Assembly: GCA_963827165.1 (NCBI GenBank)
Contig: CAWGZR010000012.1
Location: 103,089-167,088, forward strand
Reading direction: 5' to 3'
Length of the DNA stretch: 64,000 bases
From: Candidatus Bathyarchaeota archaeon
Lineage (GTDB): Archaea; Thermoproteota; Bathyarchaeia; Bathyarchaeales; Bathycorpusculaceae
Both the position numbers and the translations under genes were made by a program. This document shows positions 19,346 through 44,138 of the stretch, piece by piece. How positions within the stretch are numbered: the stretch's first letter is position 1; the number at the start of each line of letters is the position of its first letter. A model generated the notes under the pieces. The model saw only the letters and a program-made list of their open reading frames with translations. It was not told the origin of the DNA and did not search any database.

Positions 19346-19384
19346 TTCATAAAAGTTATGAACAAATATTAACTAAGCTTATAT
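19346..19384 (+). promoter_or_regulatory. Island operator + TATA (copy 1)
   Basis: TTCATAA-AAG-TTATGAA, 15 nt, then CTTATAT. Confidence 0.85.
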
Positions 19385-19426
19385 TTGGTTGAACGCCTTA
19401 TTGCTACACTTGAATTGGTGTTACAA

Positions 19427-19537
19427 TTGAAGAAAGCGACCAAAGAAACTGAACGAAACTTTGAAGAGCAAGTTATCTTGGACTCTCGAAGACAACCTCA
19501 TAGCATCTTTCGAAAAAGAATTTTCAAGAAAAAATAA
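19427..19537 (+). CDS. 36-aa microprotein, homolog of the APC leader peptide at 31515
   Basis: TTG start after GGTG: MKKATKETERNFEEQVILDSRRQPHSIFRKRIFKKK. Confidence 0.65.
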   Translation: MKKATKETERNFEEQVILDSRRQPHSIFRKRIFKKK

Positions 19538-19660
19538 GCAAACAGAGTGCACTCCTAATTTATAAGCTCGCAGTTTTGCTTTTGGAAAGTTGAGGCATTC
19601 AGAGATTTTTTTTGTTTGTGTTTTGGGTTCTTTTTTTGGTTTGAGGCTTGGATTGGTTGC

Positions 19661-19760
19661 AACTGTATGCTATAATATGCCATAATATGCTATAAAGCGC
19701 TAAAATATGCTATTTTAAGCTAAAAAACGCTAGAATATGCTAGAAAAGGATAGAAAAGAC
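19661..19760. repeat. Degenerate 10-bp tandem array (TATAATATGC-like, about 9-10 units)
   Basis: tataatatgc cataatatgc tataaagcgc taaaatatgc tattttaagc taaaaaacgc tagaatatgc. Confidence 0.8.
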
Positions 19761-19880
19761 AATGTGAGTCAACAGAGGGGAAGAGGAAATTCGAGCTTTG
19801 GGATGTTTTGGGTTTTTTCGCGTTTTTTTTTCCGCTAGTGTTTTGAGTTGCTTTCATGCTGGGAAGCTTGAATCACTTGT

Positions 19881-19970
19881 AGGTTGCGTCCTAAAACGTC
19901 GCCAAACGTCAGGTACCGTCATAAAACGTCACTAAACGTCAACAAAAATTAACATGCGACCACAGACGTC
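19881..19970. repeat. Degenerate 10-bp tandem array (NNNAAACGTC)
   Basis: aggttgcgtc ctaaaacgtc gccaaacgtc aggtaccgtc ataaaacgtc actaaacgtc ... cacagacgtc; CGTC in 10-bp phase. Confidence 0.8.
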
Positions 19971-20040
19971 AATTAACAGCGTTATAGTGTTTAGAATTGG
20001 ACGATTCAAAAAAAAAGGTAGAAAGACCCAAAGAAGGGGG

Positions 20041-21603
20041 TCAGTCTTTTTTCCAGAACATTAGAGTTCCGGATTTGGCAGCCTTCTTAGGCTCGCTCTC
20101 GTCCTCATCTTTGCCTGGGAACGGGAACAAACCGGAAGACTTTGATTTTGAGTTAACCCGGAAATAGATTAACCCTATTGCTAGCCAAATTGCAGTGCCT
20201 GCTATAGCAAAGATTCCTTCTTGCGCCGAAGCCCCTCCGCCAGCAAAGCTTAGGTACACAATAGTGGCCATCATAACTGCGTTAGCCGCGAATCCTGCGA
20301 TTGGAATTACTCTGCGTTTCAATATAGACGCTCTCTCTTTAGTGAAGGCGATCAATGCAACAATGTTTGTTAGTGCATACAGCAGGAAGGTGCCAAAGTT
20401 AGACAGCAAAGTAATGGATGTTAAGTTCGTGATCGTCAGTACTCCGAAAGATCCTATGGCGGCTGCGACAGCGGTCATTACCCAGATTCCAATGGCTGGA
20501 GTCGAGTACTTTGGGTTTAGCTTGCTAAGGTGATAAGGCACTTCAGTATCTCGGCTTATAGCGTAAGTTACTCTAACACCGGTGTTCATGCATGCAAGCG
20601 TAGTTCCTAATATTGCGGCGGCAACAATGGCGGCTATTATTAACTCGAGTGTGAACCCGTTGCCTCCGAGGAATACGTTCCCAAGGTTTCGAACCATATC
20701 TCCGATGGGAGCGCTTGAAACTGCAGCAGCACCAAATCCTGAGAACACCTTGCCGTTTTGCGTTACTGTATAGCTACTGTTCATCCATGCCTCAGCTCCG
20801 AAATATTCGAACAGATACGCGAAGGCTCCTTGAATAACCAATGATAAGATGATTGCTTTTGGAACGACCTTGGGGTCTTTGGCTTCTCCGGTATAAGCAG
20901 TCGCGGATTCGAACCCGACTAGCACTAAGATAGCAATGGTCGCTTGAAATAGCACGAAGCTGATGTCATGAGGTGTAACTATTCCGCCAAGGCTAATGAA
21001 CGTGAAACTTACATGTTGAGGGTTCGTAAGACGGAACGCCAATGCCATTCCAGTGATGACCACCAGCATCCCGATTTGAACAATGTTCAGAAGAAGGTTC
21101 GTTCTTGTTGATCCTTGAATCCCGCGATAGGCTATTGCGCCTGTAACAACCGCAAATACGCAAGCAATGGCAATTTCCCCTAAGGGTGAGACGCCGAAAC
21201 CGAGTACAGATAGGATCCATGTGAGCAGGATGGACATTGCTGCGACCATGACCCCTGGATAGACCCAGTAATAGAGGTGAGAAATCCACCCGACACCGAA
21301 CTTTGCGTTTCTAGCCGAAGTGTTGCTGGCTCCGTTGTCTAGTAAGGCTCTTTGAGCGAAATAGTACGAACTGCCTGGACCGGCGTCGGGGTATCGTCGT
21401 GCTAGCCACGAATAAGAAGCGGCAGTTAGGAACGCCAAGATTAATGCTATTGTGAGGCCAAAAAATATGTCGTTGGCAGTTGAAGCGCCAGATGGCGAGG
21501 TCTGGGCTGCGTTTATCTGAAAAGTGAGCCATAAGAATGCTCCTGGAGCTATTAAGGCCATGGCGTTTATTGTGATGCCGCCTAGGCCTAGAGTTTTTTG
21601 CAA
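20041..21603 (-). CDS. APC family amino acid permease (paralog of 31623..33134)
   Basis: About 12 TM; INAMALIAPG, YPDAGPGSSY, LVGFESA..GEAK.P, RVTYAISRD. Frame open to an ATA at 21648. Confidence 0.92.
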   Translation of the reverse strand: MQKTLGLGGITINAMALIAPGAFLWLTFQINAAQTSPSGASTANDIFFGLTIALILAFLTAASYSWLARRYPDAGPGSSYYFAQRALLDNGASNTSARNAKFGVGWISHLYYWVYPGVMVAAMSILLTWILSVLGFGVSPLGEIAIACVFAVVTGAIAYRGIQGSTRTNLLLNIVQIGMLVVITGMALAFRLTNPQHVSFTFISLGGIVTPHDISFVLFQATIAILVLVGFESATAYTGEAKDPKVVPKAIILSLVIQGAFAYLFEYFGAEAWMNSSYTVTQNGKVFSGFGAAAVSSAPIGDMVRNLGNVFLGGNGFTLELIIAAIVAAAILGTTLACMNTGVRVTYAISRDTEVPYHLSKLNPKYSTPAIGIWVMTAVAAAIGSFGVLTITNLTSITLLSNFGTFLLYALTNIVALIAFTKERASILKRRVIPIAGFAANAVMMATIVYLSFAGGGASAQEGIFAIAGTAIWLAIGLIYFRVNSKSKSSGLFPFPGKDEDESEPKKAAKSGTLMFWKKD

Positions 21604-21637
21604 TGCCGGTGACTTTTGCGTCTGTTCACCTGTGGAG

Positions 21638-21772
21638 TCAGTAGGTATCTAATTTCCCCCCTTTAAGTGGCAAGCTGAAAATAGCGGAAAATAGTTTTTC
21701 GATTTTGACAACTAATGTTTTGTGCTTTCTGCTTGTCTCTTTTACATTTGGAGATTCCATTTCCTTTTTCAT
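21638..21772 (-). CDS. 44-aa leader microprotein upstream of the APC permease
   Basis: ATG after GGTG: MKKEMESPNVKETSRKHKTLVVKIEKLFSAIFSLPLKGGKLDTY; sits between the operator promoter and the permease. Confidence 0.5.
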   Translation of the reverse strand: MKKEMESPNVKETSRKHKTLVVKIEKLFSAIFSLPLKGGKLDTY

Positions 21773-21814
21773 CTAGAAACACCGAACTTTTAGTAGATAT
21801 GGCAAATCTAGTGA

Positions 21815-21853
21815 ATATAAACTTGGTTAAGATTTGTTCATAATAATTATGAA
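21815..21853 (-). promoter_or_regulatory. Island operator + TATA (copy 2, drives leader and APC permease)
   Basis: Minus strand TTCATAA-TTA-TTATGAA-CAAATCTTAACCAAG-TTTATAT. Confidence 0.85.
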
Positions 21854-22158: not shown

Positions 22159-22254
22159 TCACTTGATTTTTAGCTGTAACCGAATTTGGTAGCCAATCGT
22201 CGCTATTGACCCCATTATGACACATGTCCAGACTACATCCACTAATCCAAACAT
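22159..22254 (-). CDS. 31-aa single-TM microprotein, MFG family copy A
   Basis: MFGLVDVVWTCVIMGSIATIGYQIRLQLKIK; RBS GGTGG; homologous to copies at 22670, 28770 and 44034. Confidence 0.8.
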   Translation of the reverse strand: MFGLVDVVWTCVIMGSIATIGYQIRLQLKIK

Positions 22255-22306
22255 TTTTCCACCAGATTCCAATTTTATTGAACGATTTCTAAGGAGAAAG
22301 CATCCT

Positions 22307-22345
22307 ATATAAACGTAATTGTGAACCGTTCATAACTTTTATGAA
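22307..22345 (-). promoter_or_regulatory. Island operator + TATA (copy 3)
   Basis: Minus strand TTCATAA-AAG-TTATGAA-CGGTTCACAATTACG-TTTATAT. Confidence 0.85.
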
Positions 22346-22588: not shown

Positions 22589-22627
22589 TTATGAAATGTT
22601 ATGAACAAATCACAACTTTATTTATAT
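22589..22627 (+). promoter_or_regulatory. Island operator (direct-repeat form) + TATA (copy 4)
   Basis: TTATGAA-ATG-TTATGAA-CAAATCACAACTTTA-TTTATAT. Confidence 0.85.
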
Positions 22628-22669
22628 TTAGCTGAGCAGATAACTAACTTACGTAAAAACGGTGAAAAT

Positions 22670-22768
22670 ATGTTTGGACTATTAGATTTAGCTTCAATCG
22701 GTTTAATCTTTGCTTCATTCGCTATTATAATGTACAACATCAGATTAGAGCTCAAAATCAAAGCATAA
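22670..22768 (+). CDS. 32-aa single-TM microprotein, MFG family copy B
   Basis: MFGLLDLASIGLIFASFAIIMYNIRLELKIKA; RBS GGTGA. Confidence 0.85.
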   Translation: MFGLLDLASIGLIFASFAIIMYNIRLELKIKA

Positions 22769-23293: not shown

Positions 23294-26074
23294 TTGGAAA
23301 AAGCTGCTTCTTTACAAATTTACGAGGTCTTCGACGATCTAGGGACGTCACCAAATGGTTTGTCAAGCGAAGAGGCAAAAATTCGCCTGACTAAAAACGG
23401 CTACAACCAACTTTCCGAAAAAAAACAATTACCCTTTATTCATAAATTTATTAGAAATCTTCGGGACTTATTCGGCATTTTATTGCTCGTTGCAAGCATA
23501 TTATCTTACATAAGCGGCAGCCCGGAACTCGCATTAATCATACTGGCTGTTGTTTTCGTAAACATTTTTGTAAGTTTGTTCCAAGAGTCCCGTGCAGAAA
23601 AAGCGATGGCAACTCTGAGAAGCTGGATGCCTGAGTTTGCCAAAGTAATTCGAGACGGAGAGCTTAAGAAAATCTCAGTCAGAGAAATCGTTCCCGGAGA
23701 CATTATATCTCTTGATGAAGGCGACCGTGTGCCGGCAGACGCACGCTTAATCGAGGCTTTTGACTTGTGGACCAATAATGTCCCCTTGACCGGCGAATCG
23801 GAGCCGCAGCCGCGTGTTGCTGAATCGGTGCAAGTTGTAGAGAAAGCCTACTTGTACGCGCCTAACCTCGTGTTCATGAGCACAAGTGTCGCCAAAGGTC
23901 AAGGGAAAGCAATTGTTTACTCAACAGGAATGAATACCCAGTTTGGAAAAATCGCTAATTTAACTCAGACAATCCATGAAGAGGAAAGCCCGCTTCAGAA
24001 AGAAATCGCTTTAACAGCAAAGTATGACTTCATAATTGCTATTGGCGTTGGCGCATCATTTTTTGTCGCTAGTTTTCTGTTTCTACACGCAACTTTGGCG
24101 ACAAGCATTTTCTTTATGATTGGTGTAATGGTTGCTTGTGTTCCTGAAGGGTTACAAGTCACTGTGTCGAGCGCCTTAGCTATCAACGTTCTAAAGATGG
24201 TCAAGCAGAACGTTTTAGTAAAACGGTTATCAGCCGTCCAAACCTTAGGCAGCGTTACCGTAATCTGCACAGACAAAACAGGCACGATAACAAAAGGCGA
24301 AATGACTGTAAACAAACTATGGGTTTACAACTACGTTGTGGATGTTTCCGGTTTAGGTTATACGCCTGAAGGAGACTTCACAACAAACGGTCAGCCATTG
24401 CAAGAAGGGCAAACGGATTCACTAGAGAGGCTCATGGAGATTGCCGCGCTCTGCAACGGTGCAAAGTTGGATCCACCTTCGGATAGAAACAAAAATTGGG
24501 GTGTGATAGGTGATCCTACCGACGGGGCTTTGCTCGTTGCGGCACTTAAGTCGAATGTGAACGTCCAGGATGCTCTGGACAAGAAACCCATTGTGCATCT
24601 TTTGCCGTTCAGTTTTGAGCGAAAACGAATGAGTACCGTGCATAAATTGAACGGTGATTTCTATATTTATACGAAAGGTGCTCCCCGAAACATCTTAGAT
24701 ATATGCAACAGAGTGCTTGTGGGCGGCGAAATTAAAGAATTAGACGAAGAAAACATGATGCTTGTTGAATCAAGGATTCGCGAGTTTGCGAATCAAGGCT
24801 TGCGAGTCATAGCTGTAGCGTATAAGGTGATACCCAAAAACCAATACAGCAAAGACGAAGCAGAGGAAGACCTAATTTTTGTCGGCTTAACTGCGATGCG
24901 CGATCCTCCCAGAGTGGAAGTTAAAGAAGCCGTTTTAGAGGCAAAGCAAGCAGGAGTGAAAACCGTAATAATCACAGGTGACTATGGACCAACCGCTCAA
25001 GCTATTGCCCAAGAAGTTGCAATTGCCTCGAGGGACTGTTGCCAGACTATTCGGGGCGTAGACTTGGAAGATTTAAGCGACCAATCAATCATAGATGAAG
25101 TTCGCAAAGGCAACGTGATTTTTGCTCGTGTTTCGCCTGAACAGAAACTTCGCATAGTTACAGTGCTCAAAAAGAGCGGAGAAATCGTCGCAGTAACTGG
25201 TGACGGAGCAAATGATGCGCCTTCGCTTAAGGAAGCTGACATCGGAGTTGCTATGGGTGCTTCAGGCACAGATGTTGCTCGTGAAGCCGCCGATATAGTT
25301 TTGCTCAATGATAGTTTTGCTTCCATCGTCAAAGCAATTGAATCAGGACGAGCTATTTATGAAAATATTCGCAAGTTTATTGTTTATGTATTTTCGCATA
25401 ACTGGGCTGAACTGATTCCTTTCATACTTTACGCAGTGTTAGGTATTCCTTTGCCATTGCTTGTGTCGCAAGTGTTAGCTATTGACCTTGCAATTGACGT
25501 TATTCCTTCTTTGGCTTTAAGTCGTGAACCTCCTGAAGAAGGGATTATGCTGGAGCCACCCCGAAGCATTAAGGAGAGACTGTTCACCCGTAAGGTGCTA
25601 CTCCGTTCAGTGTTCATTGGGGTTATCATTGCCACAGGCGCTATGATTGGGTGTCTTAATGCTTGGACTGCGGGTGGCTGGCACTTTGGAATGGCCTTAA
25701 CAAGTACAAGTTCATTTTATACTAGCGGAGTTTACGCAAAAGGTGTAACTATGACTTTTGCTGGCATAGTGGTAGCTCAAGCGGGCAACGTTTTGGCATG
25801 TCGGACCAGCAAGCAATCAATTTTTAAAACAAGCTTGAAAACAAACAAGTGGATAATCTTTGGCATCGCCGCGCAAATTGGAATTCTCGCACTACTTATC
25901 TATGTTCCGTTTATGCAGCACATCTTTTCAACAACAGCCTTATCCCTAAGCAATTGGGCATTTTTAGTGTTACTGGCTGTAATCGTTGTTTTTGCAGAGG
26001 AAGTCAGAAAGTTCTTCAGTCGCAAATTCAGTAGAACCAGTGTTGAAATGCTTAAACTGCACGACCACACTTAA
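23294..26074 (+). CDS. P-type cation-transporting ATPase (type II)
   Basis: LTGES, VPEGL, phosphorylation motif CTDKTGT, KGAP, DPPR, TGDGANDAPSL; about 10 TM. Confidence 0.95.
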   Translation: MEKAASLQIYEVFDDLGTSPNGLSSEEAKIRLTKNGYNQLSEKKQLPFIHKFIRNLRDLFGILLLVASILSYISGSPELALIILAVVFVNIFVSLFQESRAEKAMATLRSWMPEFAKVIRDGELKKISVREIVPGDIISLDEGDRVPADARLIEAFDLWTNNVPLTGESEPQPRVAESVQVVEKAYLYAPNLVFMSTSVAKGQGKAIVYSTGMNTQFGKIANLTQTIHEEESPLQKEIALTAKYDFIIAIGVGASFFVASFLFLHATLATSIFFMIGVMVACVPEGLQVTVSSALAINVLKMVKQNVLVKRLSAVQTLGSVTVICTDKTGTITKGEMTVNKLWVYNYVVDVSGLGYTPEGDFTTNGQPLQEGQTDSLERLMEIAALCNGAKLDPPSDRNKNWGVIGDPTDGALLVAALKSNVNVQDALDKKPIVHLLPFSFERKRMSTVHKLNGDFYIYTKGAPRNILDICNRVLVGGEIKELDEENMMLVESRIREFANQGLRVIAVAYKVIPKNQYSKDEAEEDLIFVGLTAMRDPPRVEVKEAVLEAKQAGVKTVIITGDYGPTAQAIAQEVAIASRDCCQTIRGVDLEDLSDQSIIDEVRKGNVIFARVSPEQKLRIVTVLKKSGEIVAVTGDGANDAPSLKEADIGVAMGASGTDVAREAADIVLLNDSFASIVKAIESGRAIYENIRKFIVYVFSHNWAELIPFILYAVLGIPLPLLVSQVLAIDLAIDVIPSLALSREPPEEGIMLEPPRSIKERLFTRKVLLRSVFIGVIIATGAMIGCLNAWTAGGWHFGMALTSTSSFYTSGVYAKGVTMTFAGIVVAQAGNVLACRTSKQSIFKTSLKTNKWIIFGIAAQIGILALLIYVPFMQHIFSTTALSLSNWAFLVLLAVIVVFAEEVRKFFSRKFSRTSVEMLKLHDHT

Positions 26075-26229: not shown

Positions 26230-26268
26230 TTCATAAGTATTATGAACAAATCTCAATTACGTTTAAAA
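26230..26268 (+). promoter_or_regulatory. Island operator + TATA (copy 5)
   Basis: TTCATAA-GTA-TTATGAA-CAAATCTCAATTACG-TTTAAAA. Confidence 0.85.
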
Positions 26269-26306
26269 TTAAGTCATGGGCTGGCCATAGATTAAATGGT
26301 GAAAAA

Positions 26307-26432
26307 ATGTTTGAAGCAATCAAAATGACGTTTATCTCAGGTAATTTTGCTTTCAGATTTTCTCTACTTGAAATAAGACTCAACTCAAAAACAAAATATA
26401 CTAAAATAAATGGTGGCACAAAATGGACTTAA
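26307..26432 (+). CDS. 41-aa diverged MFG-family microprotein overlapping the synthase start
   Basis: GGTGAAAAA-ATG: MFEAIKMTFISGNFAFRFSLLEIRLNSKTKYTKINGGTKWT; shares MF...FA.F....IRL..K.K. Confidence 0.5.
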   Translation: MFEAIKMTFISGNFAFRFSLLEIRLNSKTKYTKINGGTKWT

Positions 26433-27773: not shown

Positions 27774-27818
27774 TTTATTCGTGCTCTCCATTTTCAAGCA
27801 AATAAAAGAGCCTAAGGT

Positions 27819-35257: not shown

Positions 35258-35290
35258 GCAAGCTATAAGCCAAAAAGACAGGGACTAAAT

Positions 35291-36271
35291 ATGGCACCCA
35301 ACAAATCAGAATATGAAAAGTTACTTCCAGAAATCCGAACGCTAACCGACGAAGTCGTCAAACAAAACATGGCTGACGGAATCCTGTTCTCAGCTGGAGT
35401 GGACACAAGCATAATTGCCTACTATGCAGTCAAATATAAGCCCAAAATCCCCGCTTTGACCCTGTCTTTTAAGCATGGCCAACCCAAAGACACCGAATAC
35501 GTTAAAAAAATGGTGGATTTCCTTCACCTTCAACATGAATTCCACACTTTTGACCGCGAAGACGTAGTGACTTCAGCAGAGAAAATCGTTGAGGTCCTTA
35601 AGATTTTTGATCCCATGGAGATAAGGAACGCTGTCTCAGTTTACATTGGCTTAACAATCGCAAAGATAGAGGGCATTAAAAGTGTTTTCACCGGAGATGG
35701 AGTAGACGAGCTTTTTGGTTATCCTTGGATGTGGCGTCTGTCTGAAACTGAACTTACGAAAAAATTCAAAGACATGTGGGGCGAAATGGGTTTCTCATCA
35801 ATTCCCATGGGCAAATCAATAGGCGTTGAAGTGAAGCCGCCTTTTCTAGACCCTTTGTTCATGGATTACGCCAAGAAACTGCCAAATAATTTGAAGATCA
35901 ACGAAGAAAACGGCGTGAAATACAGCAAATGGATCCTTCGCAAAGCATATGAAGATTTAATTCCAAAAGATGTAATTTGGCGACCAAAAGCTCCGTTGGA
36001 GCAAGGAACCGGCACTACTGTTCTTACAGATTACTTTGGCAAGGAAATTTCAGACAAAGAGTTTGCCGAGCGGAGGAAACAAGTCCTTTTGGATGACGAC
36101 GTTTTCATCACAAGCAAAGAGCAACTTTTTTACTATGATTTATTTAGGAAACACTTCGCAAAGCCCTCAAGCGTCTATAATGAAAGAATAGGCCAGCAAT
36201 GTCCGCAATGTAAAAGTTACGTGAAAACCGAGCTTGGATTCTGCAAAGTATGCGGAAACTATCCCATCTGA
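35291..36271 (+). CDS. Asparagine synthase C-terminal-domain protein (no glutaminase domain), C-terminal zinc ribbon
   Basis: PP-loop-like LFSAGVDTS, TGDGVDELFGY, PFLD, KWILRKA, WRPK; CPQC...CKVC. Confidence 0.85.
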   Translation: MAPNKSEYEKLLPEIRTLTDEVVKQNMADGILFSAGVDTSIIAYYAVKYKPKIPALTLSFKHGQPKDTEYVKKMVDFLHLQHEFHTFDREDVVTSAEKIVEVLKIFDPMEIRNAVSVYIGLTIAKIEGIKSVFTGDGVDELFGYPWMWRLSETELTKKFKDMWGEMGFSSIPMGKSIGVEVKPPFLDPLFMDYAKKLPNNLKINEENGVKYSKWILRKAYEDLIPKDVIWRPKAPLEQGTGTTVLTDYFGKEISDKEFAERRKQVLLDDDVFITSKEQLFYYDLFRKHFAKPSSVYNERIGQQCPQCKSYVKTELGFCKVCGNYPI

Positions 36272-36337
36272 AATTTCCTTTTCTTAAAATGTGTCTTAAA
36301 ATACATGTTTTTGGTTAACTCTTAGGTTCGTGAAAGT

Positions 36338-38014
36338 ATGTGTGGAATAGTGGGGATTTTTAACGTTTCTGAGCCGATGGATCAAGCAAGGGACAAATCG
36401 TTGCGGATGGCAACTAAAATCCGACATCGGGGACCTGATTGGAGCGGTATTTACAGCGACGATAAAGCGATTCTTGCGCATGAACGGCTCTCCATCGTTG
36501 ACGTTGAACACGGAGCGCAACCATTGTTTGACAAACTAAACGGCAACGTGTTGGCGGTGAACGGAGAAATATACAACCATATGCTTCTTCACGGGGAACT
36601 TAAGAAAGAGCACCAGTGGCAGACAAAATCCGACTGCGAAGTAATCCTATACCTTTACGATGAGTATGGAGCCGACTTCTTAAATATGTTAAATGGCATG
36701 TTCGCCTTCGTTTTGTACGATAAGGCAAAAGGATCGTTTTTCGTCGCAAGAGACCACATAGGCATCATCCCTCTCTATGTCGGTTGGGATGACAAAGGAA
36801 CCTTTTATGTAGCCAGTGAAATGAAAGCCCTAAACGACTACTGCACCACCATTAAAGAGTTCCCGCCTGGACAATATCTTTTGGGCAACGGCGGGGAAGA
36901 CTTTGTCAAATGGTATAAGCCTGAATGGGCAGAGAAAATTCCAACCAAAAAACTAGTTCTCTCGGACCTGAAAAAAGCCTTGGAGAAATCCGTAAGGGGC
37001 GAAATGATGTCTGACGTTCCTTACGGTGTTCTTATTTCTGGCGGGCTGGATTCTTCGCTGATTGCCGCTATCGCCTCGAAGTATAGAAAGAAAAGGGTCG
37101 AGTCTGGCGGCAAAGAGGAAGCATGGTGGCCAAGATTACACTCGTTCGCGGTAGGTTTAGCTGATTCGCCTGATTTGAAATACGCTAAAAAAGTGGCGGA
37201 TTACATTGGAACAGTGCATCATGAGATAATTTTTACTATACAGGAAGGCTTTGACGCTATACCTGACGTTATTTATCATTTGGAAACTTTTGATGTTACA
37301 ACCATTCGAGCTGCAACGCCCATGTATTTGATGGCGAGAAAAATAAAATCCATGGGGATAAAAATGGTTCTCTCTGGTGAAGGCGCAGACGAAGTCTTCG
37401 GCGGATACCTCTACTTCCACAAGGCACCAAACAGGCAAGAATTCTACGAAGAAACCGTACGCAAGCTCTTTATGCTAAGCAAATACGATTGCTTGCGAGC
37501 AAACAAATCAACCGCTGCGTGGGGAGTTGAAACCCGTGTGCCTTTTTTGGACAAGGAATTTTTGGATTTTGCCATGGGCTTTGAACCTGAAGAGAAAATG
37601 TGTTCGGGCGATAAAATCGAAAAATACGTGCTGCGAAAGGCATTTGAAGGTTACATTCCTGATGAGATTCTTTGGAGACAAAAAGAACAGTTCAGCGACG
37701 GCGTCGGCTACGGTTGGATCGATTACCTCAAAAAACACGCTGAAAGCGCCGTGACAGATGAGATGATGACGAATGCCAAAACAAAGTTTCCCCTTCAGAC
37801 CCCGTCGTCAAAGGAGGAGTACTATTACAGGCAGATCTTTGACAGCTACTTCACTTGCCCCACTGCCGCATTAACCGTGCCCGTAGGTCCAACGATTGCA
37901 TGTTCCACTCCAACAGCGTTTAGATGGAGCAAGGAATTTGCCAAAATGGCAGACCCTTCTGGCAGATCCGTAAAAGAACATGAACATGCATTGAACAAAA
38001 ACGAAAAAACTTGA
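36338..38014 (+). CDS. asnB: Asparagine synthetase B (glutamine-hydrolysing)
   Basis: MCGI, HRGPD, HERLSIVD, NGEIYN, SGGLDSS, SGEGADE, WRQKEQFSDG, DPSGR. Confidence 0.97.
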   Translation: MCGIVGIFNVSEPMDQARDKSLRMATKIRHRGPDWSGIYSDDKAILAHERLSIVDVEHGAQPLFDKLNGNVLAVNGEIYNHMLLHGELKKEHQWQTKSDCEVILYLYDEYGADFLNMLNGMFAFVLYDKAKGSFFVARDHIGIIPLYVGWDDKGTFYVASEMKALNDYCTTIKEFPPGQYLLGNGGEDFVKWYKPEWAEKIPTKKLVLSDLKKALEKSVRGEMMSDVPYGVLISGGLDSSLIAAIASKYRKKRVESGGKEEAWWPRLHSFAVGLADSPDLKYAKKVADYIGTVHHEIIFTIQEGFDAIPDVIYHLETFDVTTIRAATPMYLMARKIKSMGIKMVLSGEGADEVFGGYLYFHKAPNRQEFYEETVRKLFMLSKYDCLRANKSTAAWGVETRVPFLDKEFLDFAMGFEPEEKMCSGDKIEKYVLRKAFEGYIPDEILWRQKEQFSDGVGYGWIDYLKKHAESAVTDEMMTNAKTKFPLQTPSSKEEYYYRQIFDSYFTCPTAALTVPVGPTIACSTPTAFRWSKEFAKMADPSGRSVKEHEHALNKNEKT

Positions 38015-38121: not shown

Positions 38122-38160
38122 TTAATAAAAAGTGTGAACAAATCACAATCAACCTTATAT
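38122..38160 (+). promoter_or_regulatory. Island operator (degenerate) + TATA (copy 12)
   Basis: TTAATAA-AAA-GTGTGAA-CAAATCACAATCAAC-CTTATAT. Confidence 0.65.
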
Positions 38161-38388
38161 AATTGGGTTCATACCCTATGTAAAAAGGAGAAAAAGAAGG
38201 CTCTAAATGCAATACATAAAATCAGAAATCTCTGATTGTGTTAAAGAAGCGAGTTGTTTTTCAGCCTTCTTTATCAAACTAGGCGCAATCTTGAAAGAGG
38301 TTCCCTAGTCTCCGCTCGGAATCGATAATTATGTTAAACCTAAATTGTGTTTCTATGTGTTCTGTTGCGTTGTTGGAGGCGGCATAAA

Positions 38389-38676
38389 ATGAGCCGTTTC
38401 TTAGCATCCGTCAATATTTTCGCGGATTCAACCCAAATTGACGCGGTTCTCTTAGCGTTATCCAAACTTCAAAACATCGAGGAAGTCTACGAGGTTGCAG
38501 GAGAGTACGATATCGTGACTCTTGTTTCCACCTCAACCCTTGAAGAGTTTCGAGACATCCTGCAGAAGCAAATAATGAAAATTAAGGGTGTAAAAAGCAC
38601 TATAGTTACCGTTATACTGCATCCTTGCAAAGGTCCAAGGTGCCAAGAAAAAGCTAAAATTGTAACAACCATTTAG
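38389..38676 (+). CDS. Stand-alone Lrp/AsnC ligand-binding domain protein
   Basis: GGAGG RBS, ATG 38389; YEVAGEYDIV..EEFRDIL..IMKIKGVKST; no HTH. Confidence 0.85.
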   Translation: MSRFLASVNIFADSTQIDAVLLALSKLQNIEEVYEVAGEYDIVTLVSTSTLEEFRDILQKQIMKIKGVKSTIVTVILHPCKGPRCQEKAKIVTTI

Positions 38677-38728
38677 TTGGAGACAGGAGCAATAGTGAAT
38701 ACAGATGTCACTTGGAGTTTCGGATTAA

Positions 38729-40393
38729 TTGATCGATGCAGTTCAAGCGCTGACGGTTATTCTTATAATTGGAATAACCATACTTCTCGCGTGGCTAATA
38801 TCTCCATACATCACCGGAGTCTTTAAGAGAAAATCAAGCCGCTTAGACAAAATTTTCAACCCCATCGAGAATTTCATCTACAAAATCACAGGCGTAAACA
38901 CAGAGCAGGCGATGGGTTGGAAACAGTACTTCCTCTCAGGCTTGCTGCTAAACGCCGTCATGATGGTTATCGGCTTTTTAATAATGGTTTTTCAAGGCAA
39001 TTTACCGCTCAACCCAATGCATTTCCCCGGTGTACGCCCCGACTTAGCCTTCATGCAAGTAGTCTCGTTTACCACAAATACCGATCTACAGCACTATAGC
39101 GGCGAAGCGACCTTCTCGTACCTCAGTCAAACGGGGGTTTTGCAGTGGTTAATGTTTACATCTGCAATAACTGGGCTTTGCATGGGAATAGCCTTCATAC
39201 GCGGACTGATTGTCGACGCTAAAGACATGGGAAACTTCTACGTTGATTTCACTAGATCCATTACAAGAATTTTCCTGCCTCTTTCCATAATAGCTGCAAT
39301 TATTTTTCTCGCCTTGGGTGTACCTCAAACCTTCAATGGATACACCGCAGTAAAAACCGTGGAAGGTGCCGCACAAACATTGCTCGTGGGGCCAGTTGCT
39401 TCTCTTGATGCTATACTGCAAATAGGAACCAATGGAGGCGGATTCTATGGGGCGAACGCTGCCTATCCGTTCATGAATCCATCGCCGATTAGTAACATTG
39501 TGTTGATTTCTCTTATGCTCCTGCTTCCAACAGCATTAATTTTCGTTTTCGGCCAAATGATCGGCAAGAAAACCGAGTCAAGGCCGCTTCTTTGGGCTGC
39601 GTATATTCTCTTCGGAGTAAATTTGGCTATAGCATTTATTCCAGCGCTGCCTTTGGTGGCTCCAGGCATAGAAGTCCGATTTGGCGGATTCATGTCCAGT
39701 TTTTATACCGTTACAACGACTGTTGCCACAACCGGCTCTCTAAACTCGGCTTTGTTGGGAAATCATCCTCTGACGATTCTATCTGGGTTCCTTGGAATGT
39801 TTATCCAGTCAATTCCAGGCGGGAAAGGCGTTGGCATGATGTACATGGTTATGTTCATCATAATAACAGTCTTCATTGTCGGTCTCATGTCGGGTCGAAC
39901 ACCTGAATATTTGAACATGAAAATCACTGGACGCGATGTCAAACTCGTAATGATAGCGTTTCTTATCCACCCTATCATCATACTCGTACCTACTGTAGTC
40001 GCATATGCGGGTGGTTTTGCAAGTGCCGCAAATGTAAGCGGAAGCTCTGTTGGCTATACCCAAGTTCTGTGGGAATTCACCAGCGCCGCCGCAAACAACG
40101 GCTCAGACTTCTTAGGGTCCTCAGGGAACACGCCGTTCTTCAACATAGCAACCGCCATCGTGATGCTGATAGGACGCTTTGCGCCCATAGCCATATTGCT
40201 GGCGCTTTCAGGGTCAATGATCGGGCGAAAACGCGGCGGCACAACTTCAGGTCTAAAAACTGACACTTTGATATTCACCATAGTCTTGATTGTTGCCATT
40301 ATCATACTTGTGGTATTGACTTTCTTCCCGTTCCTTGCAATCGGACCAATATCATCATTCTTCAAAGGTTGGGTGAACGGATTTGGCCACTGA
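38729..40393 (+). CDS. kdpA: K+-transporting ATPase subunit A
   Basis: SFTTNTD.Q.YSGE, GNFYVD, GTNGGGF, GLMSGRTPEYL, SAAANNGS.F. Confidence 0.95.
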   Translation: MIDAVQALTVILIIGITILLAWLISPYITGVFKRKSSRLDKIFNPIENFIYKITGVNTEQAMGWKQYFLSGLLLNAVMMVIGFLIMVFQGNLPLNPMHFPGVRPDLAFMQVVSFTTNTDLQHYSGEATFSYLSQTGVLQWLMFTSAITGLCMGIAFIRGLIVDAKDMGNFYVDFTRSITRIFLPLSIIAAIIFLALGVPQTFNGYTAVKTVEGAAQTLLVGPVASLDAILQIGTNGGGFYGANAAYPFMNPSPISNIVLISLMLLLPTALIFVFGQMIGKKTESRPLLWAAYILFGVNLAIAFIPALPLVAPGIEVRFGGFMSSFYTVTTTVATTGSLNSALLGNHPLTILSGFLGMFIQSIPGGKGVGMMYMVMFIIITVFIVGLMSGRTPEYLNMKITGRDVKLVMIAFLIHPIIILVPTVVAYAGGFASAANVSGSSVGYTQVLWEFTSAAANNGSDFLGSSGNTPFFNIATAIVMLIGRFAPIAILLALSGSMIGRKRGGTTSGLKTDTLIFTIVLIVAIIILVVLTFFPFLAIGPISSFFKGWVNGFGH

Positions 40394-42563
40394 AAACACC
40401 GTTGAGTCAAAGAAGACGAAAGATTCCTCGCCCTCAGGAATGCGCTCGGCGCTCTCTGGGAAAGTATTAGTTGACTCTGTAGTTCGCCTCAATCCTAAAT
40501 CTTTGCTTAAGAATCCAGTGATGTTTATCGTTGAAGTTACATTCTATATTGTGGCAGCGATGGCTATAGTTCCCAAGGCATTCATACCGGTCGCTACCCC
40601 TCACCTGCAGATCTTCTACATTGAAGTGGCCGCCATACTTCTACTGACCGTCTGGTTTAGCACACTCTCCGATTCGCTTGCAGAGCAGCAGGCAAAAAGC
40701 ACCGCAGGCAGTCTCAGAAAACTGGAGACAGAAGTGCCCAGCAAAAAAATAGTCACTCAGGAATGGACTAGAAAAATTACCACAGTGAAATCAACTGATC
40801 TGCGAAAAGAAGACTTGGTCCTTATCGAAACCGGCGACGTAATTCCCTTAGATGCTGACGTTATCGAAGGGATCGCGATGGTTGATGAGTCGCTTGTCAC
40901 AGGTGAGTCAGCTCCCGTCAGGAAAGCGCCTGGCGATTCACTTATCGGAGGTTCAAGGGTTGTCAGCGACTCTTTGACTGCGAAAGTTACAACCAACCCT
41001 GGAGAAACCTTCATCGACCAAATGATAAAGATGGTTGAATCGTCTAAGCGGCCTAAGACACCAAATGAAGTTGCGATAACAACTGTTCTTATCGGTTTAA
41101 CCGCAATATTCAGCATAATCATAATTGCACTGCTCGGCACTTCAGTTACACTTAACCTTGGCGCCGACTTATCCGTGCTAATCGCGCTATACGTTTGTCT
41201 TCTGCCTACAACCATAGGCGCCTTGCTACCAGCCATCGGCCTCTCTGGCATAACCCGACTATACAAAAACAAAATCATCGCAAAATCCGGCAGAGCGATA
41301 GAAACCGCCGGAGACGCAGACGTTGTACTTTTAGATAAGACAGGCACTATTACCGTGGGGAACCGGCAGGCAATAGAGTTCATTGGGTTCGACGAATACA
41401 CAGAAGAAGATGTTGGGGAAGCTGCGTTTCTGTCCTCCTGGCATGATGATACCCCTGAAGGACGAAGTATACTGCGACTTGGCTACGAAAAAGGGTTCGT
41501 TCCAAAAGAGCTGAACTTGCTTGCAACCTCGGAAGTAGAGGCATTCTCGGCGGTCACCCGAACAAGTGGCGTCAAAATAACTCAAGTAGGTTTAACCTTG
41601 CCAAAAGGCGACAAGTCAGGAAGAGAGCGCATGCGTATCCGAAGAAAATCATCCGTGGCTGTTGGGGAAACCGCGGCTGACCTCGCGGAATCCGAAATTA
41701 ACATTGTTAAGGGCGCTCCTGAATCGATTAAGAGCTTGGCGACAATTGTTCCCAAGAACTATGATCTGGTGGTTGAGGGGATTTCTGCAGTTGGAGAAAC
41801 TCCCATAGCCGTCATGCGCAATGGAGTCGCCATAGGTATAATCAGGCTTAAAGATGTGCTTAAGGCAGGCATTAAAGAAAAGATTCAAGCGCTTAAAGTC
41901 ATGGGAATCCGGCCCGTCATGATTACTGGGGATCAGCCGCTTACCGCAAAAAGCATTGCCGCTGAGGTGGGAATCGACGAGTTTGTTGCACAAGCAAAAC
42001 CTGAAGACAAATACAAAATTGCTAAGAAAGAGCAAGCTGAAAACAGAATTGTGGCGATGATTGGGGACGGCACCAATGATGCACCAGCACTTTCCGCTGC
42101 TGACGTCGGGTTAGCAATGAACTCAGGCACTGAAGCAGCCAAGGAAGCCGCAAACATGGTGGATTTAGAGTCAAACCCCGCCAAAATAATCGATGTTGTC
42201 ATGTTAGGAAAACAGCTGTTAATGACAAGGGGCGCAGTTACGGCTTTCAGTATCGCTAACGACGTGTCAAAATACTTTGCGATCATGCCCGTCATCTTTG
42301 CAACCGCCATTCCCGCGCTAAGTAGTCTAAACATCTTACAATTGCACAGTATGCAAAGTGCTGTCCTGTCAGCTCTTATCTTCAACGCAATTGTCATTCC
42401 GCTCCTGATTCCTCTTGCTATGCGCGGTATCGCCTTCAAACCAACCACGACAATGGCGCTCTTTCTGAAAAACACCTTAATTTACGGGGTAGGCGGAGTA
42501 ATCGTGCCCTTCATCGGCATTAAACTAATCGACCTACTTCTTAGCGGAGTGTTTCATATCTAG
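40383..42563 (+). CDS. kdpB: K+-transporting ATPase subunit B
   Basis: KNPVMF, TGESAPV, KTPNE, LPTTIG, LDKTGT, GDGTNDAPAL, FSIANDVSKYF. Confidence 0.96.
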   Translation: MATENTVESKKTKDSSPSGMRSALSGKVLVDSVVRLNPKSLLKNPVMFIVEVTFYIVAAMAIVPKAFIPVATPHLQIFYIEVAAILLLTVWFSTLSDSLAEQQAKSTAGSLRKLETEVPSKKIVTQEWTRKITTVKSTDLRKEDLVLIETGDVIPLDADVIEGIAMVDESLVTGESAPVRKAPGDSLIGGSRVVSDSLTAKVTTNPGETFIDQMIKMVESSKRPKTPNEVAITTVLIGLTAIFSIIIIALLGTSVTLNLGADLSVLIALYVCLLPTTIGALLPAIGLSGITRLYKNKIIAKSGRAIETAGDADVVLLDKTGTITVGNRQAIEFIGFDEYTEEDVGEAAFLSSWHDDTPEGRSILRLGYEKGFVPKELNLLATSEVEAFSAVTRTSGVKITQVGLTLPKGDKSGRERMRIRRKSSVAVGETAADLAESEINIVKGAPESIKSLATIVPKNYDLVVEGISAVGETPIAVMRNGVAIGIIRLKDVLKAGIKEKIQALKVMGIRPVMITGDQPLTAKSIAAEVGIDEFVAQAKPEDKYKIAKKEQAENRIVAMIGDGTNDAPALSAADVGLAMNSGTEAAKEAANMVDLESNPAKIIDVVMLGKQLLMTRGAVTAFSIANDVSKYFAIMPVIFATAIPALSSLNILQLHSMQSAVLSALIFNAIVIPLLIPLAMRGIAFKPTTTMALFLKNTLIYGVGGVIVPFIGIKLIDLLLSGVFHI

Positions 42564-42575
42564 GAGAACACTGTA

Positions 42576-43061
42576 ATGACTGAAGAACAAAAAGAAAACT
42601 GGAAAAAATGGAACTTCAAACCAATTATAGGGTTAGCATTAGTTTCACTGCTGATTTGCGGGCTGCTATATCCCTTCTTCATCACAGGTATCGGCCAAGT
42701 TTTCTTCCCAAACCAAGCTAACGGCGATCTTGCCAAACTTCCTAATGGACAAGTCGTCGGGTCAACCCTTATAATGCAAAACTTCAACCTGACCATTTTC
42801 TTCCAAACAAGAAACGAAACCGCCGACCCATCCGCCTCAGGCGTAGACCCGGACATTACACTTCAGATGGCGTATTCGCAGGTGCCTGGAATCAGCAACG
42901 CTACAGGGATTCCTACGAGCGACTTAACTAACATCGTTAATCATAACCAACAGGGGACATTTTGGATTTTCGGCAGCCCATATGTTGATGTCTTGCAGCT
43001 TAACTTACAGCTCATTAAAGACTATCCCTCGATCTACAGTAATTTCACTTTGAACGGTTAA
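42576..43061 (+). CDS. kdpC: K+-transporting ATPase subunit C
   Basis: N-terminal TM, FP.QANG, GS.LI.Q.F, SASGVDPDI, V.VL.LN. Confidence 0.9.
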   Translation: MTEEQKENWKKWNFKPIIGLALVSLLICGLLYPFFITGIGQVFFPNQANGDLAKLPNGQVVGSTLIMQNFNLTIFFQTRNETADPSASGVDPDITLQMAYSQVPGISNATGIPTSDLTNIVNHNQQGTFWIFGSPYVDVLQLNLQLIKDYPSIYSNFTLNG

Positions 43062-43239
43062 GGCATGTGTTGGGCTCGGGTTGCTTGCTACAGGTATGTT
43101 GGCGGTAGCTTATTTTACATATGTCCAACTTCCAATTATAAAGCTGTGCAATTGTCACGCAAATAATGAAAGTATTATCTGCATGGCAAGAAAACTATAA
43201 ATATCCGTCACTCATGTTCAAGTAGACAAGACGACCCAT

Positions 43240-43524
43240 ATGCCAAAACTACTAGCATTCGTGGACATATTTGTAGAGTCTCCAGAAATGGACAGCGTAT
43301 TAGCAGCGCTTGCCCAATTAGACCATCTTGAAGAACTGTATGAAGTGACCGGGGAATTCGACATCGTTACATTGGTGTCATCCGAAGATATAGAAGAGTT
43401 CCGCGACGTTCTCAAGAACAAAATCATGAAAATAAAAGGCGTAAAAAGCACCGTAAGCTCGATCGTCCTTAAAGCCCACAAAGGACCAAAATGCATGGAC
43501 GATAACGTTCAAACGCCAACATGA
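43240..43524 (+). CDS. Stand-alone Lrp/AsnC ligand-binding domain protein
   Basis: YEVTGEFDIV..EEFRDVLKNKIMKIKGVKSTVSSIVL..HKGPKC; paralog of 38389 and 45525. Confidence 0.88.
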   Translation: MPKLLAFVDIFVESPEMDSVLAALAQLDHLEELYEVTGEFDIVTLVSSEDIEEFRDVLKNKIMKIKGVKSTVSSIVLKAHKGPKCMDDNVQTPT

Positions 43525-43626
43525 CCCAACCTTAAAACAGCTAAATTTTCTTTATGCCCCTTATTCTTGTTAACCCATTAATTTTATACTAAAAAAAGGA
43601 AAAATTGGGCTTTTGCCTTTGGGAGT

Positions 43627-43863
43627 TTACATGGGGTTGAGTACAATTGATGTTTCCGTTCGGATAACGTTAGGGTCTTTTTCAATTATTTTGTAAACAA
43701 CTTGATTGATTTCTTCAAGTGATGGTGCTTCCAATATTACGATCGCGTCGTATCGGCCGAATATGGCGTCTGCTGTGATTGTTTCTTTGACTTTTTCCTT
43801 AAACTTTTTGACTACTTCCAAAGATGTACCCGGTTTGGTACTTAGAAGAATGTATGCTTTCAT
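43627..43863 (-). CDS. Stand-alone Lrp/AsnC ligand-binding domain protein
   Basis: MKAYILLSTKPGTSLEVV...; closely similar to 28369..28602; start ATG 43863. Confidence 0.85.
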   Translation of the reverse strand: MKAYILLSTKPGTSLEVVKKFKEKVKETITADAIFGRYDAIVILEAPSLEEINQVVYKIIEKDPNVIRTETSIVLNPM

Positions 43864-43951
43864 TTTCTTTCCTTCTGTTTTTTGGGTTAAAGCATTAATG
43901 GTTAGCATTCCATATAAATTTTCCGTTCGATTTTAGACGTATGTTTAGTCT

Positions 43952-43990
43952 TTATGAAAAATTATGAACAAATCACAACCATATTTATAT
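43952..43990 (+). promoter_or_regulatory. Island operator (direct-repeat form) + TATA (copy 13)
   Basis: TTATGAA-AAA-TTATGAA-CAAATCACAACCATA-TTTATAT. Confidence 0.85.
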
Positions 43991-44033
43991 TATGCTGAGC
44001 AAGTAACTAATTATAAAATGGAACGGTGAAAAT

Positions 44034-44138
44034 ATGTTTGGAATAATCGATATAGCCTCAATAGCAGCAATATTTGCCTCATTTGCAGTAGTAGCGTATA
44101 ACATCAGGGTAGAACTCAAGAACAACCCCCTTAAATAA
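44034..44138 (+). CDS. 34-aa single-TM microprotein, MFG family copy D
   Basis: MFGIIDIASIAAIFASFAVVAYNIRVELKNNPLK; RBS GGTGA. Confidence 0.85.
   Translation: MFGIIDIASIAAIFASFAVVAYNIRVELKNNPLK

Follow-up and report, generated by a model that had tools for sequence, protein, structure and literature searches.

A recurrent promoter module in a Bathyarchaeia contig

The stretch of DNA analysed here (the window) comprises 64,000 nucleotides of a Candidatus Bathyarchaeota archaeon (assembly GCA_963827165.1, contig CAWGZR010000012.1, positions 103,089 to 167,088 of the forward strand) and contains, within about 25 kb, thirteen promoters that share a compact element next to the TATA box. A sequence-only reading of the window had described this element as an operator of two heptamers, arranged as a palindrome (TTCATAA-N3-TTATGAA) or as a direct repeat (TTATGAA-N3-TTATGAA), and had taken the thirteen promoters for an activator-controlled nitrogen and potassium regulon. 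All thirteen sites were recovered and, in each, exactly 15 nt separate the second heptamer from YTTWWAW, the definition of a TATA-like box used throughout. The genes assigned to these promoters (glnA, an Asn-synthetase-like gene and asnB, two APC permeases, a LeuA-family gene, a RAM-kdpABC cluster and microproteins) were likewise confirmed by Pfam and NCBIfam matches and by inspection of the open reading frames (ORFs).

Pattern searches identify the exact palindrome at six sites (19346, 21837, 22329, 26230, 29045 and 31432), the palindrome with one mismatch at a seventh (33698) and the exact direct repeat at three (22589, 28688 and 43952). The degenerate sites, in the register of the earlier description, carry two (30757, minus strand), three (38122) and four (27735) mismatches, as counted manually on the aligned sites; a fourth, perfect TTCATAA lies one helical turn further upstream at 27735 (27725-27731) and 30757 (30777-30783).

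The operator in fact consists of three heptamers rather than two, the third being located inside the supposed 15-nt spacer. The complete module reads H1 (TTCATAA), 3 nt, H2 (TTATGAA), 3 nt, H3 (ATCWYAA), 5 nt and the TATA box, with elements that alternate in orientation in 10-bp phase and therefore lie on one face of the helix. Column by column across the thirteen sites, the information content of H3 is comparable to that of H1 and H2; it occurs as ATCACAA, ATCTCAA, ATCTTAA, ATATTAA, GTATTAA or TTCACAA, with the general form (A/G/T)T(C/A)NNAA, in which T at position 2 and AA at positions 6-7 are present in 13/13 sites and C at position 3 in 11/13. A conserved C and two further bases join H2 to H3, and five poorly conserved nucleotides separate H3 from the TATA box at all thirteen sites. 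The heptamers form two overlapping palindromes that share H2 (H1-H2, TCATA-N5-TATGA; H2-H3, TATGA-N5-TCATA), and the 3-nt centre of the former includes at least two A/T in 12/13 sites and only A/T in 5/13. Moreover, the heptamer ends are self-complementary (TTnnnAA), and H1 is found in both orientations. The degenerate promoters (kdp, 27735 and 30757) retain the H2/H3 junction (GAA-N3-ATC) together with H3.

The TATA boxes are near consensus; in the region of the B recognition element (BRE), for which we know of no consensus in this lineage, A is found at -6 in 13/13 window sites and at -3 in 9/13. A start codon preceded by a ribosome-binding site (RBS) follows the TATA box after 37-53 nt at ten of the thirteen sites, and hand inspection found comparable ORFs at the other three. 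Among the other genes of the window, a comparable TATA box is missing in most cases and the module in all; the module is also absent from the promoter of the window's tRNA. Since the flanks outside the 40 nt carry no information when modules before unrelated genes are compared, the modules do not derive from simple common descent.

Occurrence by chance was addressed by pattern searches with mismatches over the window and by dinucleotide-shuffle controls. With up to two mismatches, the direct-repeat pattern matches 11 times against 1.17 expected and the palindrome 10 times against 0.57, and a 26-nt degenerate pattern matches 9 times against 0.00; none of these counts was reached by any shuffle. 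Four of the eleven direct-repeat matches (5230, 12121, 29091 on the minus strand and 63322), all with two mismatches, lie away from the thirteen sites. Two position weight matrices (PWMs) were used, a 17-nt one built from the sites and a 40-nt one: the former scores at least 13 only at the sites, in their mirror or shifted registers and at one overlapping minus-strand match (29091), its best score elsewhere in the window being 11.8 (57936), and the latter finds no window site scoring 20 or more outside the thirteen. All thirteen fall in the 7641 nt of ORF-free DNA (GC 0.35) inside 19319-44192, with none in the 7315 nt of comparably A+T-rich ORF-free DNA (GC 0.38) outside it, so that within the window strong sites are confined to this region, as the earlier reading had noticed, and its refuting condition, a similar motif density in unrelated AT-rich intergenic DNA, does not apply there. 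The count of thirteen promoters thus stands, but several are paralogous copies (22589/28688/43952, 19346/31432 and 27735/30757), which reduces them to about nine independent gene families.

Modules and associated genes are located as follows (coordinates in the window, strand, feature).

19346-19385, plus: promoter module, H1 TTCATAA-aag-H2 TTATGAA-caa-H3 ATATTAA-ctaag-TATA CTTATATT (40-nt PWM score 53.3)
19427-19537, plus: orphan leader-type ORF of 36 aa with a TTG start, paralogue of the leader at 31515
21814-21853, minus: promoter module, exact palindrome, H3 ATCTTAA, TATA TTTATATT
20041-21772, minus: 44-aa leader ORF (21638-21772), then APC amino-acid permease (20041-21603; Pfam AA_permease_2, 2.6e-21)
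22306-22345, minus: promoter module, exact palindrome, H3 TTCACAA, TATA TTTATATA
22159-22254, minus: 31-aa hydrophobic MFG-family microprotein (MFGLVDVV...)
22589-22628, plus: promoter module with flipped H1, TTATGAA-atg-TTATGAA-caa-ATCACAA-cttta-TTTATATT
22670-22768, plus: 32-aa MFG-family microprotein
23294-26074, plus: type II P-type cation ATPase (Pfam, NCBIfam)
26230-26269, plus: promoter module, exact palindrome, H3 ATCTCAA, TATA TTTAAAAT
26307-27655, plus: 41-aa ORF (26307-26432) overlapping the start of a LeuA/homocitrate-synthase-family gene (26423-27655; Pfam HMGL-like and HCS_D2)
27725-27774, plus: promoter module of four phased heptamers, TTCATAA-tta-TTCTTAA-cac-GTGAGAA-ctt-ATCTCAA-atcgc-TTTATATT (score 37.4)
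27819-28163, plus: 114-aa stand-alone protein with its own module promoter, with similarity confined to the C-terminus of AsnB (NCBIfam NF006949, 9e-20, well under the cut-off)
28688-28727, plus: promoter module with flipped H1
28770-28868, plus: 32-aa MFG-family microprotein
29045-29084, plus: promoter module, exact palindrome, H3 ATCTTAA, TATA TTTTAATT
29127-29302, plus: 22-aa leader ORF (29127-29195) and 32-aa membrane microprotein (29204-29302)
30734-30783, minus: promoter module of four phased heptamers, paralogue of the module at 27725 (score 39.4)
29848-30682, minus: 41-aa ORF (30557-30682) and 165-aa conserved protein (29848-30345)
31432-31471, plus: promoter module, exact palindrome, H3 GTATTAA
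31515-33134, plus: 35-aa leader ORF (31515-31622), its stop codon abutting the ATG of an APC permease (31623-33134; Pfam AA_permease_2, 6e-24)
33698-33737, plus: glnA promoter module, ATCATAA-gtt-TTATGAA-caa-ATCTTAA-ctacg-TTTAAATT
33791-38014, plus: glnA (33791-35257), Asn-synthase-domain protein (35291-36271) and asnB (36338-38014) (NCBIfam, Pfam)
38122-38161, plus: degenerate module of the RAM-kdp operon, TTAATAA-aaa-GTGTGAA-caa-ATCACAA-tcaac-CTTATATA (score 44.0)
38207-43061, plus: 33-aa ORF (38207-38308), RAM-only gene (38389-38676), kdpA, kdpB and kdpC
43240-43524, plus: RAM-only gene downstream of kdpC (Pfam AsnC_trans_reg, 5.4e-17)
43952-43991, plus: promoter module with flipped H1
44034-44138, plus: 34-aa MFG-family microprotein

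GlnA (TIGR00653, 575 bits) and AsnB (NF006949, 858 bits) score above the respective cut-offs; for the LeuA-family gene, every NCBIfam match is below cut-off. The 114-aa protein aligns to residues 466-551 of the 554-residue AsnB model, and the 165-aa protein is 85% identical to the product of 1401-1907 in a related locus (L046), where it lies beside glnA, and 26% identical to a DUF4760 protein in another (L035). No TATA-like box precedes the P-type ATPase gene within 130 nt, and this gene is presumably co-transcribed with the MFG microprotein gene upstream of it.

Direct-repeat sites correspond to bidirectional promoters

The sites with a flipped H1 exist as described, but their form reflects bidirectional promoters rather than an alternative direct-repeat operator. 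Their opposite strand carries a divergent promoter that shares H1 (TTCATAA-3-YTAAACA-3-GTCTAAA), and H1 appears flipped because the same heptamer is the normally oriented H1 of this second promoter, which belongs to a RAM-domain gene. In one subfamily, CTTATATG or TTTATATG comes 5 nt after the array (window 28655-28694 and loci L035, L053, L087, L094, L108 and L109 of the genome scan described below); in the other, the TATA box is placed 8 nt further out (window 43911-43958 and loci L039, L055 and L102). The corresponding features of the window are:

28655-28694, minus: divergent promoter having H1 in common with the module at 28688, TTCATAA-aag-TTAAACA-gat-GTCTAAA-caaga-CTTATATG
28369-28602, minus: gene for a 77-aa stand-alone RAM-domain protein; the divergent TATA box lies 52 nt before its start codon
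43911-43958, minus: divergent promoter variant with shared H1, TTCATAA-aga-CTAAACA-tac-GTCTAAA, TATA TTTATATG 8 nt beyond the canonical place
43627-43863, minus: 78-aa RAM-only gene (MKAYILL...), paralogue of 28369-28602 (Pfam AsnC_trans_reg, 1.9e-10)

The window thereby gains a fifth RAM-only gene (28369-28602) and two more module-type promoters. The product of this gene is 97% identical to that of 1682-1912 in L053, which itself matches Pfam AsnC_trans_reg (7.4e-10), and an MKAY... start, the N-terminus of the RAM-only proteins, follows the divergent promoter within the flank both in the window and in nine of ten loci, the tenth being L035. At site 22589 and in L124, the flipped H1 is kept and the divergent TATA box has been lost. 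RAM gene and microprotein gene together are thus predicted to constitute a compact bidirectional unit built on five phased heptamers. A 102-aa ORF on the minus strand (28349-28657) was rejected as lying in the wrong frame, the real gene being the 77-aa RAM ORF. L094 (CAVVRN010000002.1:64001-64491) provides another MFG-microprotein module with a divergent RAM-type promoter.

The module in related genomes

Species-representative genomes were scanned with the pattern TMWKAANNNTTATGAACAWRTMNNAA, which requires an exact H2 and does not include the TATA box, yielding at least 126 matches in at least 124 loci (numbered L001-L124), 44 of which have flanks of only ~300 nt. Among the matches listed, 56 are archaeal, 47 belong to Chryseobacterium or Kaistella and 23 are scattered over other bacteria; YTTWWAW is found at exactly +15, and thus 5 nt after H3, in 51 of the archaeal matches, none of the Chryseobacterium/Kaistella ones and one of the remainder. 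Because this spacing was absent from the search pattern, its recurrence bears out the earlier suggestion that one regulon is defined by a common operator whose distance from the TATA box is constant. Two of the five archaeal misses have near-miss TATA boxes (L011 and L046), and the other three (L012, L059 and L063) are likely chance matches in other lineages.

The 51 archaeal loci come from at least 42 assemblies and are nearly all labelled Bathyarchaeia or Bathyarchaeota, or else Thermoproteota or "uncultured archaeon" with the same synteny; to several Bathyarchaeia loci, the window is 79-87% identical in nucleotide sequence over 1.4-2.2 kb, which places it in this lineage. In the archaeal loci, an RBS and a start codon lie 34-53 nt after the TATA box at 47 of 63 module sites, with a mode at 42-43 nt. 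A complete Freyarchaeia (Asgard) chromosome (CP147778.1; L022, 2000-2039) also carries the full three-heptamer module with its TATA box, 38 nt before a glnA gene whose product is only 51% identical to the GlnA of the window, so that a recent transfer is not involved; the origin of the element may predate Bathyarchaeia, or its distribution may extend beyond them. The Chryseobacterium/Kaistella matches (L001-L010 and 37 more) represent one conserved site with conserved downstream sequence and no TATA-like box, which looks like the start of a conserved gene unrelated to the module.

Genes found after the module in these genomes extend the nitrogen theme that had been read from the window. They include glnA (L022, L045 and L124), amt (L014, L020, L023 and L070, as well as L121 by N-terminal likeness), asnB (L046) and APC permeases with the same leader families (L016, L043, L045, L058 and L068, and by their N-terminus L086, L088, L100 and L119), in addition to a CitMHS transporter (L070), MFG microproteins (at least 10 loci) and microproteins followed by Mrp/Nuo-type subunits (L024 and L029). 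RAM-kdpA follows the module in L043, where the link to kdp is conserved; modules similar to that of the window's kdp operon are present at L043:1287 (minus strand) and L068:3811, and in L068 the link is probably conserved as well. An arrangement of an Lrp gene, a module with amt and a second module is shared by L014, L023 and L070 (also L082/L083 and L121/L122), with CitMHS at the second module in L070; in L035, NifH-family and radical-SAM genes (2631-4024) are located ~590 nt downstream of an MFG-type module. No P-II/GlnK gene was found next to amt, nor by Pfam among 129 ORFs from 26 four-kb loci, four of which contain amt. The pairing of amtB with glnK is widespread, and an amt gene without a neighbouring glnK is unusual.

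The picture of the regulon as a 25-kb island did not survive this comparison: modules are dispersed in related genomes, those of L026 and L124 being ~512 kb apart on one contig, and the region described here is a local concentration, not the whole regulon.

Candidate regulators

The window encodes one Lrp and five RAM-only genes, among them two features not listed so far:

17051-17533, plus: full-length Lrp/AsnC regulator, candidate regulator (Pfam HTH_24 and AsnC_trans_reg)
45525-45788: further RAM-only gene (Pfam AsnC_trans_reg, 3e-20)

For both this Lrp (116 bits, the cut-off being 190) and its amt-linked counterpart in L014, the best match is the haloarchaeal Lrp family NF041396, in each case below cut-off. 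Syntenic fragments 81-84% identical to the window's Lrp are found in L058 and L068, where the arrangement of Lrp, PhoU, PHO4 and module recurs, and in L014, L023, L070, L082 and L121 a full-length Lrp gene, or its 3' end at the edge of the locus, terminates ~90-170 nt upstream of the amt module. Lrp genes thus adjoin sites in seven loci and in the window. According to Pfam, genes with an AsnC_trans_reg domain occur in nine of the 26 four-kb loci, and Lrp fragments in three more (L058, L068 and L070); the Lrp/RAM family is enriched in the vicinity of the sites. As for the sites themselves, a semi-palindrome of ~13-17 bp with an A/T-rich centre, as expected for Lrp, is present, the 7-3-7 arrangement being exact in 6/13 and broken by one mismatch in a seventh. 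The proposal that the window's Lrp is the regulator therefore has a fair candidate in its favour but lacks specificity, considering that the amt-linked Lrps are divergent, that in seven other loci a gene for a ribbon-helix-helix (RHH) protein adjoins the sites, and that no operator precedes either kind of gene.

A putative nitrogen regulon and its alternatives

Considered together, the module is most likely the binding site of a putative nitrogen regulator. A nitrogen regulon spread across genomes is well supported, and we lean, if only slightly, towards regarding the module as the cis-regulatory signature of nitrogen assimilation in Bathyarchaeia. One sequence-specific transcription factor would bind the heptamer array, whose invariant core is the H2/H3 junction (tGAAC-AA-ATC), and occupancy of the array would probably report nitrogen or amino-acid status. 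A distance to TATA/BRE this rigid and stereospecific points to a factor that contacts the pre-initiation complex and activates transcription, along the lines of EarA, TFB-RF1 or the ara-box factor, a step to which we give somewhat more credence than doubt. The factor itself is tentatively placed in the Lrp/FFRP family, a little short of an even call. Ligand-sensing modulation would be the task of the five stand-alone RAM-domain proteins, and the module-type promoters of three of their genes would provide feedback; RAM-only protein DM1 responds to 2-oxoglutarate (PMC2995911).

Several observations weigh against this scheme. All its functional elements are read from sequence, and the requirement for an exact H2 makes regulon membership as scanned both incomplete and biased. 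Kdp, the P-type ATPase and the Mrp/Nuo-like genes of L024 and L029 are not classical nitrogen genes. Over their aligned parts, the five amt-linked Lrps share no more than 36-40% identity with that of the window, and natural Lrp sites are degenerate, with centre-to-centre spacings of two or three helical turns (PMC2995911), as opposed to the nearly invariant elements 10 bp apart of the module. Upstream of the Lrp genes (window, L014 and L023) and of the RHH genes (L024, L028, L029 and L031), there are no paired heptamers, only scattered single heptamers with one mismatch. Finally, near-consensus TATA boxes argue against activation by recruitment of TBP, and H3 reaches the BRE position, where A at -6 (13/13) and -3 (9/13) is compatible with a BRE that is not weak; blocking of TFB by a repressor would fit equally well. 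Thus, of the earlier claim of activator control, the fixed distance between operator and TATA box was borne out, activation itself being a positional argument.

The alternative that survives best retains the regulon and the operator and makes the factor a repressor, which from H2-H3 would cover the BRE and keep TFB away from promoters that are strong by themselves, dissociating upon a rise in 2-oxoglutarate or a fall in glutamine. This agrees with near-consensus TATA boxes that most other genes of the window do not have, with the end of H3, 5 nt from TATA, overlapping the position of a 6-7-nt BRE (PMC5512572), and with the precedent of NrpR, the most familiar nitrogen regulator of archaea, which in methanogens represses and is released by 2-oxoglutarate (PMC4902934). 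Yet exact spacing in 51 of the 56 archaeal matches listed is stricter than steric blocking needs, sites upstream of the BRE are the usual position of activators (PMC5512572), and NrpR itself does not appear to be involved, GGAA-N6-TTCC being absent from the window. We consider this alternative rather unlikely in the form stated, repression as such being slightly less doubtful.

Less likely still, the binding protein would be something other than an Lrp: either a conserved archaeal RHH (CopG-like) protein of ~182 aa or a different factor whose gene is unlinked. Binding to phased short repeats is a feature of RHH proteins, MetJ, Arc, omega and NikR among them, and the half-sites of NikR are TATGA/TCATA-like; short phased repeats tolerated in either orientation, as seen in the self-complementary heptamer ends and the two orientations of H1, would suit arrays of RHH dimers. 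Consistent with this, an RHH_1 gene ends just upstream of a module in seven loci (L024, L028, L029, L031, L095, L110 and L118), and the proteins are 63-88% identical over their aligned parts. Those seven loci, however, share one type of synteny and amount to a single independent association; a homologue is absent from the window (best tblastn E = 0.10), no operator precedes the RHH gene, and the family has no known function, a protein atlas look-up giving only uncharacterised archaeal CopG-like clusters.

It is improbable that the regulon answers osmotic or K+ stress, with Kdp-mediated K+ uptake, cation ATPases, and glutamine/glutamate and imported amino acids serving as compatible solutes. 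The module does precede kdpABC, a type II P-type ATPase and two APC permeases in the window, it recurs before kdp genes in L043 and probably L068, and Mrp/Nuo-like genes lie downstream in L024 and L029. Accordingly, the potassium part of the original proposal holds for gene content; as a signal it is demoted because amt, in at least four loci, and asnB, in L046, are under the module in other genomes and point to nitrogen. Together with glnA and amino-acid permeases, these genes are standard nitrogen-regulon content. Lastly, a lineage-typical extension of strong core promoters, or a cassette copied with duplicated genes, without any dedicated regulator, would account for the paralogous promoter groups of the window but is very improbable, considering that the module precedes unrelated gene families without conservation beyond the 40 nt, that other promoters of the window, including that of the tRNA, do without it, and that its membership follows one functional theme.

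Returning to the nitrogen regulon, its most extended version would be speculative: in Bathyarchaeia and at least one Freyarchaeia genome, a three-heptad element locked to BRE/TATA would be read by an FFRP, a logic without a described archaeal precedent, and tuned by small RAM-only sensors that are encoded within the regulon and replace the PII/NrpR circuit, with leader peptides and microproteins as post-transcriptional regulators of permeases, Kdp and the P-type ATPase. We consider this unlikely to hold in full.

Relation to known regulatory systems

The operator differs, as had been proposed, from established nitrogen-control sites: neither GGAA-N6-TTCC (the NrpR consensus as quoted in the sequence-only reading; both strands) nor TGTNA-N7-TNACA (GlnR/TnrA) has a match in the 64 kb, and no NrpR-type domain was reported when 57 ORFs of the window were compared to Pfam. 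No description of the motif was found in the available parts of the literature on the motif itself, on archaeal Lrp, glnA and amt, and on Bathyarchaeia promoters, subscription-only papers being outside this coverage; the regulon can thus be called undescribed within these bounds. What is known is the kind of system, an archaeal nitrogen regulon with a promoter-proximal operator; what is new is the element, its three-heptad geometry locked to TATA, the lineage, and the embedded RAM-only genes and microproteins.

One close counterpart is the NrpR regulon of Methanococcus maripaludis and Methanosarcina mazei, where glnA is likewise tied to other nitrogen genes by an operator common to their promoters and 2-oxoglutarate serves as the signal (PMC4902934). 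NrpR is, however, a euryarchaeal repressor with a different operator, whereas the Bathyarchaeia site lies upstream of TATA at a fixed distance. Methanogens also have a nitrogen-regulated small protein, sP26, that acts on glutamine synthetase (bioRxiv 10.1101/2020.05.06.080432). Lrp genes beside nitrogen genes are a further parallel: Halobacterium salinarum Lrp (OE3923F) induces its neighbour glnA (PMC2894021), and Sa-Lrp of Sulfolobus acidocaldarius responds to glutamine and binds the control regions of glnA, gltB and gdhA (PMC3584215). It is to this group that the NF041396 matches of the Lrps of the window and L014, albeit below cut-off, relate. Unlike the poorly defined and degenerate sites of those proteins, the module is nearly invariant, with three phased heptamers at a fixed distance from TATA.

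In architecture, short repeated elements directly upstream of the BRE are reminiscent of those used by EarA, TFB-RF1, the Sulfolobus ara-box factor and Ptr2, and the position immediately upstream of BRE/TATA that is typical of archaeal upstream activating sequences is occupied at all thirteen window sites and in 51 of the 56 archaeal matches listed. EarA, whose target promoter has a TATA box that conforms to the consensus, is proposed to recruit TFB (PMC5512572; PMC5937170). In contrast to those systems, which concern single operons or small gene sets, the module serves at least nine gene families in at least 42 assemblies with base-exact spacing. The bacterial pho box offers a more distant comparison, in that PhoB binds 7-bp repeats with a 10-11-bp period at a fixed distance from the core promoter and replaces a missing core contact; since PhoB is a response regulator that uses direct repeats only and works with sigma-70 machinery, the analogy is one of architecture alone.

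Among the uncultured archaea of sediments, peat and soils, Bathyarchaeia rank with the most abundant, yet we know of nothing on their gene regulation; to our knowledge, archaeal nitrogen control outside methanogens and haloarchaea is largely an open question. The module would mark nitrogen-regulated genes, including unannotated microproteins and leader peptides, in any metagenome-assembled genome from Bathyarchaeia, and would tie K+ uptake through Kdp and RAM-only sensor proteins to nitrogen status. In addition to being a possible bait for culture-free identification of the regulator, the 40-bp element offers a natural test case of stereospecific activation at an archaeal core promoter.

Leader peptides, microproteins and neighbouring features

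Short ORFs of recurrent families follow many of the modules. Leaders of 35-45 aa precede APC permeases, with representatives in the window (31515-31622 and, as an orphan copy, 19427-19537) and in L044, L058, L068, L016, L092, L086, L088, L100 and L119; they end in ...GQPHSIFQKRI..., with variants ...PHSVYQNRI... and ...GHHSTYQKRI..., and the stop codon of the permease leader abuts or overlaps the start codon of the permease, which suggests translational coupling or a sensing leader peptide. A second family of 20-22 aa, with the ending E(T/I)(L/V)(Y/C)F(P/K)(H/R)(I/V), is represented in the window (29127-29195), L011, L026, L089 and L111; a tyrosine-rich single-helix microprotein of 32-53 aa comes after it in the window, L026 and L111, and in L011 and L089 the leader alone is seen. 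The MFG family of hydrophobic microproteins (31-34 aa, MFG(I/L)(I/L/V)D...SIRxELK) is represented four times in the window, once upstream of the type II P-type ATPase.

Rfam finds one tRNA in the whole window (12614-12783, minus strand; 170 nt, presumably with an intron), where ARAGORN reports none, and no known leader or riboswitch in the 25-kb region. Just upstream of the glnA promoter, an 89-aa ORF (33298-33567) probably represents a gene fragment, its match to the H+-pyrophosphatase model (645 positions) being limited to positions 1-76. Finally, the module-driven orphan leader at 19427-19537 converges on the 3' end of the minus-strand permease gene 20041-21603, which has a module of its own, and may have an antisense or interference role; the same convergent layout recurs in another species (L043/L044).

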